A stretch of 64,000 bases of DNA, taken from contig DATCZS010000112.1 of the NCBI GenBank assembly GCA_036525795.1, positions 8,635 to 72,634 on the forward strand, read 5' to 3'. This document shows, piece after piece, positions 2,024-7,967 of this stretch. Position 1 is the stretch's first letter. Each line of letters starts with the position of its first letter. Under the pieces are notes generated by a model, which searched no databases, was not told the DNA's origin, and saw only the letters and a list, made by a program, of their open reading frames with translations. A program made the position numbers and the translations under genes. Source of the stretch: Acidimicrobiia bacterium (lineage in GTDB: Bacteria; Actinomycetota; Acidimicrobiia; Spongiisociales; ZC4RG35).

Positions 2024-2409
2024 GTGTGCTCCCTGTGGCGGTCGACCCGACGAAGTCCGGTCGATGTGCGCAGTGTAGGGCGGCGCCCCCGCCCGGCATC
2101 AGGCGGATCACCCTCTGTGACTAGTCCTCATGGCATCGCGCGGAACCACCCACAGGGCGATGCGTGGCTGCCGATAACGGTCGGGAACGCCAGGGGGAGC
2201 ACACCATGACCACGCCTTTCACGATCGGATCCGTGTCTGTTCGAGAGTTTCTCGCGTCGATGACGGCTGCGTCCCGAGAAGAGGGCGATGCCCCGGACGA
2301 GGAACCGGCCGTTCGACCGGCCGCCTGAACTCGCTTCCCGACCGGCCGCCACCCGGACCGGTCGAAGGGGCCTATCCCCCTGCCGAGTGATGTCCTCTTC
2401 GTCCCCGAG

Positions 2410-2482
2410 TGGAGCTGACGGGATTTGAACCCGTGACCCCCTGCTTGCAAAGCAGGTGCTCTGCCAACTGAGCTACAGCCCC
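2410..2482 (-). tRNA. tRNA-Ala (anticodon TGC)
   Basis: reverse complement reads GGGGCTGTAGCTCAGTTGGCAGAGCACCTGCTTTGCAAGCAGGGGGTCACGGGTTCAAATCCCGTCAGCTCCA; anticodon loop CTTTGCAAG; CCA not encoded. Confidence 0.9.
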
Positions 2483-2631
2483 AGAGAAGGCGCCGCTCTC
2501 CTCGGGGTTGCCGCCATCGCCAGGCGAGGGACGGCTCCGTCGGAAATCGACCACCAGAGGATATCCGATGACGGAGGTGGGGCCACAACCCCGGCCTTCC
2601 GCTACCCACACCACCGACGTATCGTCTGCGC

Positions 2632-4743
2632 ATGACGGACAGCCGCGTGATCGTCGCAGACGACGACGGACGGGAACCGGCCCCACCCCTCTCTCCCCCG
2701 CCTCCCGACTCAAGGGCGGGACTCGGTGCCCTGGTGGCGGCAGCGGTGGTGATCGTGGGACTGGTGCTCGTCGGAACCGCACCGGACCCCGAACCCGACC
2801 AGACCGGTGGGCTCGGGGCACCCACCGCGGCCGAGCAGCCCGTGGTGACCGCACCTCCCGCGGTGGTGCCCGAGATCGCCCTGGGCTGGAGGCGCCTCGA
2901 CCTGCCGGGGAGAGGCACCGTCGTCGAACTCGCCCACGGTGGAGGCGGTTGGATGGCTCTCTCCCACGGCGAGCAGTCGACCGTGGCGACGTCGACGGAC
3001 GGGCGGATCTGGGTGACCCGCTCCTTCCCCGGACCTCTCGACGGAGACGTGCTCGGCATGGTGACGTCCACCCGCCACGTGGTGGTCGACACCGGCGCAG
3101 GGACCGGCGGCGCCACCCGCTCGTGGGTCTCCACAGACGGCGGCGTGACCTGGGACACGGCCCTGTTCCCACCCGGCTACGTGCGGATCACATCGCTGGT
3201 CTCTGCCGGAGACCGCATCGTGGCCGGCGGGGCGGTGTCCACCGATCCCCGGGACGTCGTCGAGGAGGGATCCGCCACCACGGCGATGGCGTGGCACTAC
3301 ACCGACGGCCGGTGGGTTCCCCTTGCGTTCTCCAGCCCGCCGGGCGCCTTCAGCAGCGTCGAGGCCCTGGTGACGACATCGGACGGGGTCATGGCCTTCG
3401 GGCGGGTCGACGAGGGTCCGGCCGCCTGGCGGCTGGAGGGGCTGACGCTGGCCCGGGTGTCCGTCTCGGTCCCTCGCGCCGTCGAGGAAAGCTCCTTTTC
3501 CGCCGTGACCCGGTCGATGGACGGGTGGTGGCTGGCAGAGTTCCGGTCCAGGTCGAGCGCGTCCTATGCCACGTCCAGCGACCTCACCCAATGGGATCTG
3601 CTCGGGGCGGGACTCGACGGTTCACGGAGCACCTCGGTCGCCGCGACCGGCCTCGGCATCGTCGGTGTGGGCGAAGACGATCAGCAGTTCCGTCTGGTCG
3701 ACGGCTCGGGGATCCAGGAGGTCCGGTACCGCTATCCGGACACCTTCACGGGCTTCGATCCGGACCGGCACACATCGGTGGTGGCCTCCGATGGAGACCT
3801 GATCGTGATGGGAGGCGGAACCTACTCGCCGGCCCTGTGGCTGCGTGGTCTCACCGGCGGACGGGTCGGGGTCACGGCCGAGCCTTCCACCCGAGAGGGA
3901 CGGTGGCGGCTGGCAGGGTCGTTCGGATCGGGCTTCTGGGATCCGGATCCCCGCCCGTTCCGGGTCGTGCGGTGGGAAGGTGGGTATGCGGTCGCCACCC
4001 CGCAGGCCGTGTGGCACACCACCGACCTCATCGGGGTCGCCGCGACTCGCGAAGACATCGTGCCCGAGCGCCTGATCGCGACGCGTCAAGGACTGCTTGC
4101 AGTCGATTCCGGGGCAGCGCTCCTCGGCTCGGACGGCTCGGGAGGGTGGGAACCGGAGAACCTGGGCTTTGCGGTCGGCGGCGTCACCGAGACCCCCTCA
4201 TCGGTGATCGCCTACGGGTGGACCGACCGGGGCGAGGCCGTACTCGCCGTTCGCCCTGACGGCGGATCCTGGGAGATCGTGACACCCGACTCCTCGTCCA
4301 CGATCTACCCCGTCGCCGCCGCCGCCGGTCTCGTCTTCGGATTCGACGCCGAGCGTTCGGCTGAAGACGGAGGCAGGTTCAGCTCCGACGGGGTGACCTG
4401 GGAGCCGATCGAACTCGACGCACTCCGCGGACTCGAGAGCGGTACCCCGTTCGTGATCGTGGAGCGCTCCCGGGCCTCGACCACCATCCAGCTCCTCGAC
4501 GAACAGGCGCCGTTGGTGGTTCCTTCCATCGATCCGGTCGAGGTCGTGAGAGTGGGCGAGATCGTGCGGGTACGGGGGTCGGACGGGCTGTGGGAGACCT
4601 CCGATGCAGGAACCACCTGGATCACCTACCCCATCGGCCTCGAGCAGCGGCTCATCGGGCCTCTGCGCCTTGCGCCGACCGAGGAACCGATCGTCCTCCT
4701 GGCGGCGCGTGACTCCTACCGCATCCTTGTCTTCGAACGGTGA
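2632..4743 (+). CDS. membrane-anchored BNR/Asp-box repeat (beta-propeller) protein, unknown function
   Basis: 703 aa; N-terminal TM helix (LGALVAAAVVIVGLVLVG); repeated S-x-D-x-G-x-T-W motifs (STDGGVTWD, SSDGVTWEP, TSDAGTTWI). Confidence 0.65.
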   Translation: MTDSRVIVADDDGREPAPPLSPPPPDSRAGLGALVAAAVVIVGLVLVGTAPDPEPDQTGGLGAPTAAEQPVVTAPPAVVPEIALGWRRLDLPGRGTVVELAHGGGGWMALSHGEQSTVATSTDGRIWVTRSFPGPLDGDVLGMVTSTRHVVVDTGAGTGGATRSWVSTDGGVTWDTALFPPGYVRITSLVSAGDRIVAGGAVSTDPRDVVEEGSATTAMAWHYTDGRWVPLAFSSPPGAFSSVEALVTTSDGVMAFGRVDEGPAAWRLEGLTLARVSVSVPRAVEESSFSAVTRSMDGWWLAEFRSRSSASYATSSDLTQWDLLGAGLDGSRSTSVAATGLGIVGVGEDDQQFRLVDGSGIQEVRYRYPDTFTGFDPDRHTSVVASDGDLIVMGGGTYSPALWLRGLTGGRVGVTAEPSTREGRWRLAGSFGSGFWDPDPRPFRVVRWEGGYAVATPQAVWHTTDLIGVAATREDIVPERLIATRQGLLAVDSGAALLGSDGSGGWEPENLGFAVGGVTETPSSVIAYGWTDRGEAVLAVRPDGGSWEIVTPDSSSTIYPVAAAAGLVFGFDAERSAEDGGRFSSDGVTWEPIELDALRGLESGTPFVIVERSRASTTIQLLDEQAPLVVPSIDPVEVVRVGEIVRVRGSDGLWETSDAGTTWITYPIGLEQRLIGPLRLAPTEEPIVLLAARDSYRILVFER

Positions 4744-4767
4744 TCTCCCTGCGCACCGGCCCGGCCG

Positions 4768-5535
4768 TCAGCCGGCGCGGCCGATGCCGCCGCGTACGAC
4801 GACGTCTCCCTCGATGATCTGCGCCCTCAGGTCGTCGGCCTCACGACCGGGCATCAGCCCGAGTTCGGCCATGACCGCCCCGTAGTCGTCGAGCGCCTTG
4901 AGCGCATCGACCCTTCTCCCCTGCTCGAGCAGCGAGCGGGCGAGCAACTTCCACAGATGCTCACGGTACGGGTCGTCTGCGAGCGCCGACCGCAGCCTGC
5001 CGACGGCACGGATCTGATCGCCGAGTGCGACATCGCACTCCAACTCCAACTCGACCGCAGTCCGCCGCAACTCCTCCAGCCGGAGCGCCTCCACACGAAA
5101 CGGATCCTCGTCTGCCATCTCCCCATACGGTGTTCCCCGCCACAGCGAGAGCGCGTCCAGCAGCAGTCTGCGGGCGGCCTCCGGGTCGGTGTGGACGGCC
5201 TCCGCCGCCTGAAGCACAGCCCTCTCGAAAGCGCATGCGTCGATGTCCTCGCAGGTCGCCACCAGCGTGTAGCTGTGGTCGGTGGCTCGCAACCAGTCCT
5301 CCCCGAGAAGGGCGCGCAGGCGCGAGATGTGAGATTGGAGCGCGTTCATCCCGGTGGCGGGAACCCCTTCCGGCCACACCACATCGAGGAGCCGGTCGAT
5401 CGACACCGCGTGGTTCACCGAGAGCACGAGAACGGCGAGCAGCGCCTGAGTTCGTCGACCGGCAACCGGCACGACAGCCTCCCCGTCGTCGATGGCGGGC
5501 GGTCCCAACATCAGGATTCGAGTGCGCGGCGGCAT
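4768..5535 (-). CDS. SARP-family (AfsR/DnrI/RedD-like) transcriptional regulator: OmpR-type winged helix plus BTAD domain
   Basis: ILMLGPPAIDDGEAVVPVAGRRTQALLAVLVL...IDRLLDVVWPEG... then TPR-like BTAD region; start placed at MPPRTRILMLGPP (ORF extends to 5562). Confidence 0.8.
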   Translation of the reverse strand: MPPRTRILMLGPPAIDDGEAVVPVAGRRTQALLAVLVLSVNHAVSIDRLLDVVWPEGVPATGMNALQSHISRLRALLGEDWLRATDHSYTLVATCEDIDACAFERAVLQAAEAVHTDPEAARRLLLDALSLWRGTPYGEMADEDPFRVEALRLEELRRTAVELELECDVALGDQIRAVGRLRSALADDPYREHLWKLLARSLLEQGRRVDALKALDDYGAVMAELGLMPGREADDLRAQIIEGDVVVRGGIGRAG

Positions 5536-5734
5536 CACAAACACCGACTGACCACACCTCACGGTACGCCCAGGGGCAATCCCGATCCAGAGTCCAACGT
5601 CAGCGTCCGCGCCGGGTCAGCAGCACATCCCGTCCGGGTATGCGCCCCATCCGATCCGCCACCGGCCGACTGGCGTTCCGGGCGCGACCGTGAGGGAGAA
5701 GGAACACAGTCCGAGAGACCCAAGGAGGTGGATC

Positions 5735-6268
5735 GTGACACTGGACACCGGCCTGAGAGCCGGCGAGTCGGCCGGCACCGAAGCCGGGGTACGCGAACGG
5801 GAGGTGCTTCCCAGAGTGCGGCAGCCGGTCGTGCGCTGGATCGAGTTCCTGGCGTTCATGGGGTTGGTGGTCGTGGCGGCCGTAGGCCTCTGGCTCATCG
5901 TGGGCAACGACGCAACCGACGGCAGCTTCGAGGCCGCCGAAGAGATGCGTTTCGAACGAATCGGCCAGGCCGCGGCGGTGATCACCGCCCAGCAGTTGGC
6001 CCGGCTGGAAGACGCGGTCACGCCCTCCGTCGGAGCCCCCTTCGAGATGGCCGAAATGGCCCGCTTCGAGCGGATCGCCGAGGCGGCCGGCGCCCCGACG
6101 CTCTTGAGCGACGGCTCCTCTTCCTATGCCGAGTCGCTGCGGCTCAACCTGCTTCGGCCCACAGGCGGAATTCATCTCGACGGGTTCGACGTCGCCGAGA
6201 TGCTGCGCTTCTCCCGCATCGGCGGCTATGCGCAGGCGATCACCCTCGACGAGTTCGTGGAGCCGTGA
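5735..6268 (+). CDS. hypothetical single-TM protein with RFERIG/RFSRIGGYA repeats (paralog A)
   Basis: GTG at 5735 preceded by AAGGAGGT with 6-nt spacer; TM helix FLAFMGLVVVAAVGLWLIV; repeats EEMRFERIGQAAAV / EMARFERIAEAAG / EMLRFSRIGGYAQAITLDEF; about 45% identical to the next gene. Confidence 0.6.
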   Translation: MTLDTGLRAGESAGTEAGVREREVLPRVRQPVVRWIEFLAFMGLVVVAAVGLWLIVGNDATDGSFEAAEEMRFERIGQAAAVITAQQLARLEDAVTPSVGAPFEMAEMARFERIAEAAGAPTLLSDGSSSYAESLRLNLLRPTGGIHLDGFDVAEMLRFSRIGGYAQAITLDEFVEP

Positions 6269-6286
6269 GAGAAACCGAGGTGAGAC

Positions 6287-6859
6287 ATGACATCGACGAT
6301 TGACCGGGGGAAGACAAGGGAAGGCCTCGACTGGGGGAGGGCGCCTCCGAGAACCCATCCTCAGGCCGTCAGGCGGATCGAGCTCCTGGTGTTCATGGGA
6401 CTCGTTGCCGTGGCGGCGGTCGCCCTGTGGCTGATGGCGGGTGATGACACGACCGACGGCAGCTTCGAGATCGCCGAGCAGATGCGGTTCGAACGGATCG
6501 GCCAGCAGGCGGCGGTGGTGGACGTCGAGGACTTCGCCTCATTGGAGGACGGGGTGGCCGCCACGATGGACCACAGCTTCGACCGCGCCGAGCTGGAGCG
6601 TTTCTCCCGTATCGGCGGCTACGCGCCGGCGATCACGCTGAACGAGTTCGCCGCACTGGAGGATCACGCCTTTGTCGCCCCGACGCATGGCGAACTCCAA
6701 GGACTCGCCGACATCTACACCGGCGACTCCTTCGGCTCCATGCCGATGGACTACTGGCAGAACCTGGCGCTCCAGGAGTTGGCCGACATCTACACCGGCG
6801 ACTCCTTCGGCTCCATGCCGATGGACTACTGGCAGGCCCACACGTCGCCGGTTGAGTGA
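6287..6859 (+). CDS. hypothetical single-TM protein with RFERIG/RFSRIGGYA repeats (paralog B) carrying an internal exact duplication
   Basis: ATG 6287 after GAGGTGA; collinear with paralog A; C-terminal exact duplicate LADIYTGDSFGSMPMDYWQ x2. Confidence 0.65.
   Translation: MTSTIDRGKTREGLDWGRAPPRTHPQAVRRIELLVFMGLVAVAAVALWLMAGDDTTDGSFEIAEQMRFERIGQQAAVVDVEDFASLEDGVAATMDHSFDRAELERFSRIGGYAPAITLNEFAALEDHAFVAPTHGELQGLADIYTGDSFGSMPMDYWQNLALQELADIYTGDSFGSMPMDYWQAHTSPVE
6707..6835 (+). repeat. two identical 54-nt direct repeats (6707-6760 and 6782-6835) separated by 21 nt, inside paralog B
   Basis: read directly: gccgacatctacaccggcgactccttcggctccatgccgatggactactggcag occurs twice. Confidence 0.9.
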
Positions 6860-6866
6860 GGCGCAG

Positions 6867-6914
6867 CCAACACTCTCACCGGAGTGACTGCCAACACTCT
6901 CACCGGAGTGACTG
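6867..6914 (+). repeat. perfect 24-nt tandem repeat x2 (ccaacactctcaccggagtgactg) immediately after the paralog B stop
   Basis: read directly from sequence. Confidence 0.9.
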
Positions 6915-6916
6915 GG

Positions 6917-6949
6917 ATCAGGCGTGGCCTCGGGGGTTCTACGCCTGAT
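6917..6949 (+). terminator. hairpin ATCAGGCGT-N15-ACGCCTGAT, putative intrinsic terminator of the paralog pair
   Basis: 9-bp perfect stem, 15-nt loop; no U-tract. Confidence 0.4.
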
Positions 6950-7029
6950 CGTCGAGCACGACGGTACCTGTCCGCCTTGCCCCGCTTCCTCCATCATCGG
7001 TACACTCGCCCCCTGCGCGACCGCGCATC

Positions 7030-7105
7030 CGGGCCCATAGCTCAGTTCGGTTAGAGCGCTGCCCTGATAAGGCAGAGGTCCCTGGTTCAAATCCAGGTGG
7101 GCCCA
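7030..7105 (+). tRNA. tRNA-Ile (anticodon GAT)
   Basis: GGGCCCATAGCTCAGTTCGGTTAGAGCGCTGCCCTGATAAGGCAGAGGTCCCTGGTTCAAATCCAGGTGGGCCCA; 7-bp acceptor stem; lone tRNA as at the Mycobacterium ori region. Confidence 0.9.
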
Positions 7106-7166
7106 CCCCCGACAGTCTCTGCTGGTTCAGGGACTTCCCGCTTCCTGGCTTGGGGCCCGCCCCCCA

Positions 7167-7967
7167 TCACTCGGCTGCGAACAGCCTGATCGGCTCAGGA
7201 AAGCCCTTGAGGTCGATCTCGCCGACGTCGAGGAAGCTGACGCCCTTGCCGATCGCCAGGTCCCGGACAGTGCCCGCGACGAGGGTCTGTCCGCCCGCAG
7301 CATGCGCGCAGATGCGAGCAGCCAGGTTCACCGAAGCCCCGTAGATATCGGAGGATTCCTCGACCGGCTCGCCGGCCGAGATCCCGATCTTGATGCGGAG
7401 GTTCCCGATGTCCTCGCATCTTCGGTGCATCTGTGTCGCCGCCCCGAGTGCCTTGATGACAGAAGCGAACGATGCAAGCACACCGTCACCGGTGTGCTTG
7501 ACCTCCGAGCCGGAAAACTCGGCGAGGCAGGCCCGCACGATCTCGTCGTGGCGTCTGACTGCCTCGACGGCGGCAACGTCCCCATGCTCGGTGCTGATGG
7601 AGGTCGAACCCTCGATGTCGGTGAACATGATCGCCCGCAGACCGGTGTCGAGTTTGCCGTCATCGAGCAGGACCCGGTCTCCCTTGTCGGTAGCCATCCC
7701 GCCGAGGAATGCCGACATCGTGGGGGCATCGAGCTCGATGACGTTGTGGGGCATGAGTCCGTGTGACGCCTTGTGGCACGCCCTGAGGGACTCGGCATCC
7801 GGGGCCTCGGCGAGGCAGAAGGACTTTCCGTCTGGAGCGTTGAGCCAGTACGAGACCCACCTGACTCCGAACGCGTCCTGCATCTCGAGATCTGCGCGGT
7901 GGGCCGCCGCGATCTCTTCGGGCGTCGCGTCGCCGAGGCCGGGGTGGACGTCCATGAACATCGGCAT
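7167..7967 (-). CDS. DUF4242-like N-terminal domain fused to a class III adenylate/guanylate cyclase catalytic domain
   Basis: N-term MPMFMDVHPGLGDATPEEIAAAH... (SCO4226/DUF4242-like); C-term cyclase motifs FTDIEGSTSI, EVKHTGDGVLASF, DIYGASVNLAARI. Confidence 0.8.
   Translation of the reverse strand: MPMFMDVHPGLGDATPEEIAAAHRADLEMQDAFGVRWVSYWLNAPDGKSFCLAEAPDAESLRACHKASHGLMPHNVIELDAPTMSAFLGGMATDKGDRVLLDDGKLDTGLRAIMFTDIEGSTSISTEHGDVAAVEAVRRHDEIVRACLAEFSGSEVKHTGDGVLASFASVIKALGAATQMHRRCEDIGNLRIKIGISAGEPVEESSDIYGASVNLAARICAHAAGGQTLVAGTVRDLAIGKGVSFLDVGEIDLKGFPEPIRLFAAE

Follow-up and report, generated by a model that had tools for sequence, protein, structure and literature searches.

A candidate SARP-controlled module of repeat-built membrane proteins in a tRNA slot near gyrA of uncultured Acidimicrobiia

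We analyzed a stretch of 64,000 nucleotides (contig DATCZS010000112.1; here called the window) from an uncultured Acidimicrobiia bacterium, with a focus on an islet that lies close to gyrA and oriC in a slot bounded by divergent tRNA-Ala and tRNA-Ile genes. The islet encodes a small regulator of the SARP (Streptomyces antibiotic regulatory protein) type and, on the opposite strand, two tandem membrane protein paralogs, A and B. We read it as a probable regulator-target module that is specific to one clade, a narrow group within the uncultured Acidimicrobiia, and assign this reading a probability of roughly 60%. The central features are as follows.

4768-5535, minus strand: small SARP of 255 amino acids (aa) with an OmpR-type winged helix and a BTAD domain (Pfam, NCBIfam, solved structures)
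5735-6268, plus strand: paralog A, 177 aa; tail, VRWIEFL juxtamembrane stretch, transmembrane (TM) helix, acidic ectodomain
6287-6859, plus strand: paralog B, 190 aa; N-terminal architecture as in A, followed by a repeat ectodomain
2409-2482, minus strand: tRNA-Ala(TGC) (ARAGORN); left boundary of the slot, 5' end towards the islet
7031-7107, plus strand: tRNA-Ile(GAT) (ARAGORN; Rfam tRNA, 75.4 bits); right boundary of the slot, 5' end towards the islet

The pairing of regulator and membrane protein genes recurred across the loci that were compared. A SARP of the same subfamily was divergent from a gene of the A/B family in seven of eight contexts (the window clade, L006, the contig that carries P0010, L008, L009/L010, L012, and L056). 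Four lineages hold the SARP together with one or more family genes in the slot near gyrA. Besides the window, the arrangements were the following (percentages are identities of B and of the DUF3566 protein).

L006 (B ~50%, DUF3566 75%): thiolase, tRNA-Ala (minus strand), SARP (minus strand), A-like gene, B-like gene, tRNA-Ile (plus strand), and further along DUF3566 and gyrA
L008 (B ~40%, DUF3566 88%): propeller ortholog, SARP, one B-type gene, tRNA-Ile, and further along DUF3566 and gyrA
L009/L010 (B ~40%, DUF3566 88%): SARP, one family gene, tRNA-Ile, SIMPL, and further along gyrA and gyrB

The comparison set consisted of 40 other Acidimicrobiia species, found via the DUF3566 neighbor (all at most 72% identical); their origin regions contained no family member or small SARP within 10 kb. 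Since the module is present throughout the window's clade and absent from these 40 origin regions, it is an old, clade-specific gain, and the distribution points to a single filling of the slot, in the ancestor of this clade. A profile scan of contigs did not find the window clade (DUF3566 at least 75% identical) among 185,579 GTDB species representatives, the nearest of which reached 72% DUF3566 identity. The clade was common in ZHEN15-1 metagenomes, where paralog A was present on 116 contigs.

A preliminary description of this DNA had named the regulator an AfsR-family SARP activator that is divergent from two tandem paralogs, and both statements hold. Pfam detected Trans_reg_C (PF00486; 34.3 bits, cut-off 26.2; residues 37-89, counted in the 264-aa open reading frame) and a nearly complete BTAD (PF03704; 86.8 bits, above the curated cut-off; model positions 1-145 of 146), while NCBIfam gave partial AfsR/BagI-FevR-like matches. 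The nearest solved structures were EmbR (2fez; E = 3e-16) and AfsR (8hvr; E ~1e-16), with ~235 residues aligned. The reading frame is open to a GTG at 5562 (4768-5562, 264 aa); the ATG at 5535 is the most likely start, picked from the conservation of MPPRTRIL/MRLRTRIL in relatives. Beyond the winged helix and BTAD, the protein displayed only weak TPR matches, which lie inside BTAD; its size (255 to 264 aa) falls within the ~250 to 300 aa of small SARPs, and Pfam assigned no sensory domain of its own. The ratio of nonsynonymous to synonymous substitution rates (dN/dS) of the SARP gene was 0.09. Domain scans of the locus found no secondary-metabolite or other biosynthetic enzymes among the neighbors of the SARP gene.

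In the deposited record of an Acidimicrobiia metagenome-assembled genome (MAG), both paralogs are listed as hypothetical proteins (A, HEY5685465.1, identical; B, HEY5685466.1). The start codon of A is a GTG preceded by AAGGAGG. The two genes probably form an operon, since they are separated by a gap of 18 nt, both carry Shine-Dalgarno sequences, and a hairpin lies past B. At the DNA level, A and B share a 216-nt stretch at 73% identity in addition to internal repeats of 48 to 78 nt. Five copies of an FExAExxRFxRIG unit are present in total, three in A and two in B, and in B these are followed by two 25-aa ADIYTGDSFGSMPMDYWQ units. The ectodomain repeats are thus of two kinds, DGSFExAExxRFxx[IL] in both proteins and, in B, also LADIYxGxxFGxxPxxxW. 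The ectodomains are acidic (pI 4.3 for A and 4.05 for B), the N-terminal tails are basic, and neither protein contains cysteine. Because of this basic tail and acidic C-terminal part, both proteins are predicted to be oriented with the N terminus inside and the C terminus outside. Charge distribution and modeled helix agree with one TM helix and extracytoplasmic repeats per paralog, as had been proposed.

A profile search among 1.84 billion representative proteins returned 25 clusters at E < 1e-3, and all named members originate from Acidimicrobiia MAGs. Members share a cytoplasmic tail of ~25 to 45 aa, an RW[IL]x[WF]L motif, a single TM helix, and two to eight units of [DS]GSF[ED]x[AN]ExxR[FM]xx[LI], often with proline punctuation; A and B both fit this architecture, and some members add two or three ADIY units. 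Judged by these shared sequence features, A and B represent an undescribed family of repeat-built membrane proteins. An RRIELL stretch in B was considered as a Tat (twin-arginine translocation) motif and rejected; all relatives have RW, not RR. Between the window and a lineage at 93% identity (the 93% lineage), dN/dS amounted to 0.34 for A and 0.47 for B, compared to 0.04 to 0.19 for eight neighboring genes. A and B are therefore real genes under purifying selection, which evolve several-fold faster than their neighbors. Structure prediction of the repeat domain, which the preliminary description had suggested, succeeded in part. An AlphaFold2 model of B from 23 sequences contained a confident TM helix (predicted local distance difference test [pLDDT] score, 95 to 97) and seven more helices at an overall pLDDT of 71, but its tertiary packing could not be trusted (predicted template modeling [pTM] score, 0.24). 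A 10-sequence alignment resulted in a pLDDT of 40.7.

The region between the SARP gene and A contains an array of short repeats, which lies between two promoter-like elements.

5604-5654, plus strand: five heptamers in an 11-nt phase (CGTCCGC, GGTCAGC, CATCCCG, GGTATGC, CATCCGA); candidate SARP box
5681-5691, plus strand: GGCGCGA[C/A]NNT with the -10-like GACCGT (5686-5691); putative A-B core promoter
5561-5566, minus strand: -10-like hexamer of the TANNNT type, TACCGT, which precedes the SARP gene; putative, from its conservation

The intergenic regions of five loci (window, L005, L006, L008, and L009) were aligned. Four heptamers of the form [CG][GA]TCCGN in an 11-nt phase were common to all five, with conserved cores and variable spacers, and the window has an extra upstream heptamer (CGTCCGC at 5604). 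The phased heptamer score was 19/20 in L006, L008, and L009 (as high in 0/2000 dinucleotide shuffles) and 17/20 in L005 (1/2000). The GGCGCGA[C/A]NNT element was located exactly 66 nt (6 x 11) from the aligned heptamer 1 in 5/5 loci. The hexamer on the SARP side was TACCGT or TACGGT in every one of the five, and its distance to the array was not kept. Heptameric direct repeats with 4-nt spacers constitute the known binding signature of SARPs (PMC10972967, PMC10936776). Because the phase is conserved, the scores exceed those of shuffled sequences, the 66-nt spacing is invariant, and the signature matches, the array is likely a SARP box. A second four-heptamer array was not found in the window at up to three mismatches; this result carries little weight, since the known array of the window is itself so degenerate that it escapes this threshold.

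At L056 (375-547), a same-subfamily SARP (E = 1e-40 with the SARP profile) is encoded divergently from P0020, a distant member of the family, and between the two genes another 11-nt direct repeat occurs in tandem, GGCCGTGCGC x2. The occurrence of a different 11-nt tandem at this SARP pair suggests that box and regulator co-evolve.

From these features, the following mode of action can be proposed. The SARP would bind the four or five 11-nt-phased heptamers and, once bound, would activate the A-B promoter from a fixed helical phase 66 nt upstream. In the wall zone, the extended ectodomains would serve for binding or scaffolding with a tunable valency, and their length would be set by gain and loss of units; this role is a guess. 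Changes in unit number and homogenization of the units could result from slipped-strand or unequal recombination between identical 54-nt cores in B.

Several observations weigh against a regulator-target module of this kind. The window's own heptamers are degenerate (15/20; 17 of 2000 shuffles scored as high). In a canonical SARP site, the 3' repeat and the -10 element are 8 bp apart, and the repeat overlaps the -35 element (PMC10936776), whereas the last conserved heptamer of the 4- to 5-unit array ends 31 nt before the -10-like hexamer, so that the canonical geometry is not reproduced; the assignment of the A-B promoter to 5681-5691 may be wrong. A canonical -10 hexamer is not conserved 8 to 9 nt past the last conserved heptamer. 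A consensus promoter/terminator scan of the locus returned nothing. The position of the array is nearer to that in the PimR case, in which the repeats do not overlap the -35 element, and such repeats provide a precedent (PMC10972967). The family member at L007, P0029, has no adjoining SARP gene. The tertiary structure of the family was not predictable (pTM 0.19-0.24), and no fold or sequence relative of A and B with known function was found: Pfam, NCBIfam, and PADLOC gave no match, a profile search of the PDB was empty, and Foldseek of the AlphaFold2 model against the PDB found no fold match (best E = 5). Furthermore, the difference between two and three repeat copies in B, described below, is known from short-read metagenome assemblies.

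The surroundings of P0029 differ from those of the other members. It is preceded by a BNR/sortilin-like protein, which is cytoplasmic, and by a protein of 98 aa (L007:4884-6955) and lies two genes from an extracytoplasmic function (ECF) sigma factor with a Big-domain neighbor; P0029 may be under different regulation.

The strict adjacency of SARP and family gene over a large divergence (the seven of eight contexts) could also mean that A and B are signaling partners of the SARP and not merely its targets. The SARP would then be tethered or modulated, via its TPR-like BTAD, by the conserved cytoplasmic tail together with the juxtamembrane RW[IL]x[WF]L motif; the ectodomain would sense the envelope. 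Anti-sigma factors and partners of the ToxS/CadC type are precedents for such tethering. In favor of this explanation, the family has kept its N-terminal tail and RW motif despite a highly variable ectodomain, and the SARP lacks a sensory domain. However, the tail is short (~25 to 30 aa) and loosely conserved, a divergent regulator-target pair is the more common explanation for such an arrangement, and the L007 member has no SARP neighbor. Overall, we regard a signaling partnership as unlikely. A more far-reaching version, in which SARP and repeat protein form a new two-protein transmembrane signaling unit and the tail sequesters or licenses the SARP via the BTAD/TPR surface, appears slightly less likely again. 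The fast-evolving, variable-repeat ectodomain would in that case read a cell-wall or extracellular cue, and a sensor-less SARP would gain an anti-sigma-like membrane partner.

For the regulator-target module, the C-terminal repeat of B provides a second line of observations, which concerns the evolution of the presumed target.

6695-6835, plus strand: two repeat units with a period of 75 nt in B; copy number 2 or 3

The preliminary description had reported a perfect 54-nt direct repeat in B, and this repeat was found as described: the cores at 6707-6760 and 6782-6835 differ by 0 mismatches, and 0/100 shuffles gave such a match. The 66-nt units are 92% identical. It had also been read as a very recent duplication, and this reading could not be maintained. 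Two ADIYxGxxFGxxP units with a 25-aa period are also present in orthologs at 40 to 50% identity (P0003-P0006 and P0011), in which the units have diverged. At the DNA level, units 1 and 2 of L006 differ at 7 positions from each other and at 10 to 12 from the window units; for L008, the corresponding values are 12 and 13 to 19. In a 91% relative, an ATG-to-ACG (Met-to-Thr) change is found in unit 1 and unit 2 alike. Since units are closest to each other within a genome and a substitution is shared by both units, these patterns point to concerted evolution or unit turnover and not to a new duplication. Thus, the two-unit architecture of B is ancient and has been kept identical by concerted evolution or by repeated replacement of units.

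Copy number varies between close relatives. The 90% cluster of B includes members of 215 aa. In L013 and L014, which are 99.8 to 99.9% identical to the window over 12 kb, B contains an in-frame 75-nt third unit that is a copy of unit 2 (allele P0033). Within the 93% lineage, L015 has three units (allele P0037) and L005 has two. The proposed ongoing change of the repeat was thus supported, with two or three units in near-identical strains of two lineages. Four further, independently assembled contigs, one of them an ENA metagenome scaffold and the other three from NCBI MAGs, encode the exact B protein, and their DNA was identical except for one single-nucleotide polymorphism in L002. A comparison across relatives, as had been suggested, showed variation in copy number, while a recent presence of the genes did not emerge from it, as the module occurs throughout the window's clade.

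All assemblies were derived from short-read metagenomes, and the difference between two and three units, possibly also the perfect identity of the cores, could be an assembly artifact that conceals one fixed structure. Between the unique flanks of the repeat (left, CAAGGACTC; right, GCCCACACG), the three-unit allele spans 204 nt, which is beyond the span of a 150-nt read, and its copy number hangs on the resolution of the assembly graph. In contrast, the 129 nt of the two-unit allele can be crossed by a single read. The two-unit form was identical in at least five independent assemblies, and the three-unit form appeared in four assemblies from two lineages. Moreover, assemblers seldom expand repeats, and two units are present independently in diverged orthologs. 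An artifact is therefore doubtful, to about the same degree as the signaling partnership considered above.

The preliminary description had further suggested horizontal acquisition, based on the neighboring tRNA gene and on the absence of the genes from the conserved synteny of mycobacterial origins. The latter frame of reference was wrong, as the deposited A and B proteins place the genome in Acidimicrobiia. Presence among Acidimicrobiia is indeed patchy: among the 40 related species without the module, seven (L016, L023, L027, L030, L040, L043, and L046) have an empty slot with divergent tRNA-Ile and tRNA-Ala genes 80 to 230 nt apart. Other cargo occupies the slot in two others of the 40. 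In L024 (12177-17518), the cargo consists of a 1003-aa large SARP and an HATPase_c_2 protein, and in L052 (16157-19248) of an ECF sigma factor (DUF6596) together with a YCII and a BNR-like protein. The gap between tRNA-Ile and tRNA-Ala seems to be a variable slot of Acidimicrobiia in which regulators accumulate.

These observations would be compatible with an island that was recently acquired and integrated at a tRNA gene. However, the same slot is occupied by the module in lineages with B orthologs at 40 to 50% identity, and the synonymous divergence of the islet genes equals that of neighboring genes. Pfam and NCBIfam detected no integrase, transposase, or other mobility gene among the four genes between the tRNAs. 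The GC content is 0.65 to 0.73 across 2500-7100 and 0.64 to 0.69 in the flanks and displays no deviation. Both tRNA genes face the islet with their 5' ends, neither with its 3' end, and ARAGORN and Rfam detected no additional tRNA or tRNA fragment in the window. A recent event is largely refuted; we consider a recently acquired, tRNA-integrated island quite improbable. Horizontal acquisition in general finds little support beyond the patchy distribution.

That A and B are multi-core precursors, the units of which are cleaved off as signals or RiPP-like peptides (RiPP, ribosomally synthesized and posttranslationally modified peptide) under SARP control, would suit a short, strongly conserved motif repeated two to eight times with variable linkers and the classical role of SARPs in specialized metabolism (PMC10972967), but it is highly improbable given that genes for a modifying enzyme, protease, or exporter are not conserved around the module in the compared loci, that the proteins lack cysteine, and that a cytoplasmic N-terminal tail with a TM anchor is atypical.

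The proposed regulator-target module resembles known SARP systems in part. Like the small SARPs of the ActII-ORF4, RedD, and DnrI type, the window protein combines an OmpR-type winged helix with BTAD in ~255 aa, and direct heptamer repeats in 11-bp units (4-nt spacers) beside an adjacent, here presumed, target gene are shared as well (PMC10972967). Unlike in these systems, there is no biosynthetic cluster, the presumed target is a pair of membrane proteins, and the host belongs to Acidimicrobiia. In Streptomyces, the SARP AfsR directly activates the adjacent small gene afsS (PMC10972967). A SARP gene beside one or more small genes is common to both loci, with activation being presumed for the window.

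AfsS is a small protein of short repeats. A and B differ from it by the TM helix and the extracytoplasmic repeat region, and no sequence similarity to AfsS was apparent, as the profile search returned only the A/B family. The best match among solved structures, EmbR of Mycobacterium tuberculosis (2fez), regulates the cell-envelope genes embCAB and not a secondary-metabolite cluster, which makes it a precedent for an envelope-acting SARP. The forkhead-associated (FHA) domain that Pfam did not detect in the SARP of the window is present at the C terminus of EmbR (PMC10936776).

Repeat-number-variable surface proteins and contingency loci are characterized by unit gain between near-identical strains, homogenized units, and elevated dN/dS. 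B resembles them in its in-frame unit gain, homogenization within genomes, and elevated dN/dS; it differs from them in that it has only two or three units and displays no on/off frame switching.

SARPs have been studied almost only as switches of antibiotic clusters in Streptomyces. The window contains gyrA, gyrB, recF, dnaN, and dnaA as well as further origin-proximal genes (DUF3566, CrgA, PknB, and a penicillin-binding protein). Because the SARP is tied to a membrane protein family beside the origin and a block of cell-wall and division genes, the locus suggests an envelope-related SARP regulon. It also offers a clean natural case of concerted evolution and copy number polymorphism in a short protein repeat, together with a candidate SARP box of noncanonical spacing that is open to testing. 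The practical value is modest, given the uncultured organisms and the tiny family.

Downstream of B, two further features had been listed in the preliminary description, and both were found.

6866-6913, plus strand: perfect tandem of a 24-nt unit (2.0 copies, 100%) in the 3' untranslated region (UTR) of B
6916-6950, plus strand: 10-bp GC-rich hairpin, GATCAGGCGT / ACGCCTGATC, with no U-tract (sequence and fold)

Each 24-nt unit contains a small stem (CACUC/GAGUG). The unit is single-copy in L005 and L015 of the 93% lineage, so that this duplication, in agreement with the earlier note, is recent; it is probably a neutral slippage event. In L002, L013, and L014, the first copy ends in A instead of T. 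Folding of the 3' UTR gave -49.9 kcal/mol (z = -2.5). The hairpin is kept in L005 and L015, where an A-to-G change retains a G-U pair, and it is a probable terminator of the A-B operon.

The genes that surround the module encode, apart from the membrane paralogs and tRNAs, a propeller protein, a cyclase, SIMPL, DUF3566, and gyrA. Two features adjoin the SARP and B genes within the slot.

2632-4743, plus strand: membrane-anchored protein of 703 aa with Asp-box (BNR-like) motifs; accessory part of the islet
6977-7006, plus strand: promoter-like TTGCCC, 18-nt spacer, and TACACT upstream of tRNA-Ile; putative, as read from the sequence

The 703-aa protein is anchored N-terminally and contains Asp-boxes at residues 167 (STDGGVTW) and 656 (TSDAGTTW); its dN/dS was 0.19. 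It had no Pfam, NCBIfam, or PADLOC match, and a sequence search of the PDB was empty. The protein occurs in the window clade as well as in L008 (partial protein, 53% identical), and a 684-aa protein next to P0010 is a probable ortholog. It is absent from L006, where the SARP gene directly follows tRNA-Ala; this locus lacks the cyclase as well. A BNR/sortilin propeller was considered as an obligatory partner of the family, since P0029 adjoins one, and was rejected: the L007 protein is unrelated and cytoplasmic, and L006 has no propeller.

The TACACT hexamer upstream of tRNA-Ile is also kept in L005 and L006; the consensus promoter scan did not report this sigma-70-like promoter. The tRNA was the only family that Rfam found in its scan. 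Antisense to tRNA-Ile (7031-7106, minus strand), it gave a sub-threshold match to the 'Plastid-ycf2 5'UTR' family (37.8 bits compared to a gathering threshold of 65.7), which is almost certainly spurious and an echo of the tRNA-like structure. Directly past tRNA-Ile, a gene at 7167-7967 (minus strand) encodes an SCO4226-like (nickel-responsive) domain fused to an adenylate/guanylate cyclase. This fusion, which is absent at the corresponding position in L006, L008, and L009, was found in the window clade (L001-L004 and L013-L015).

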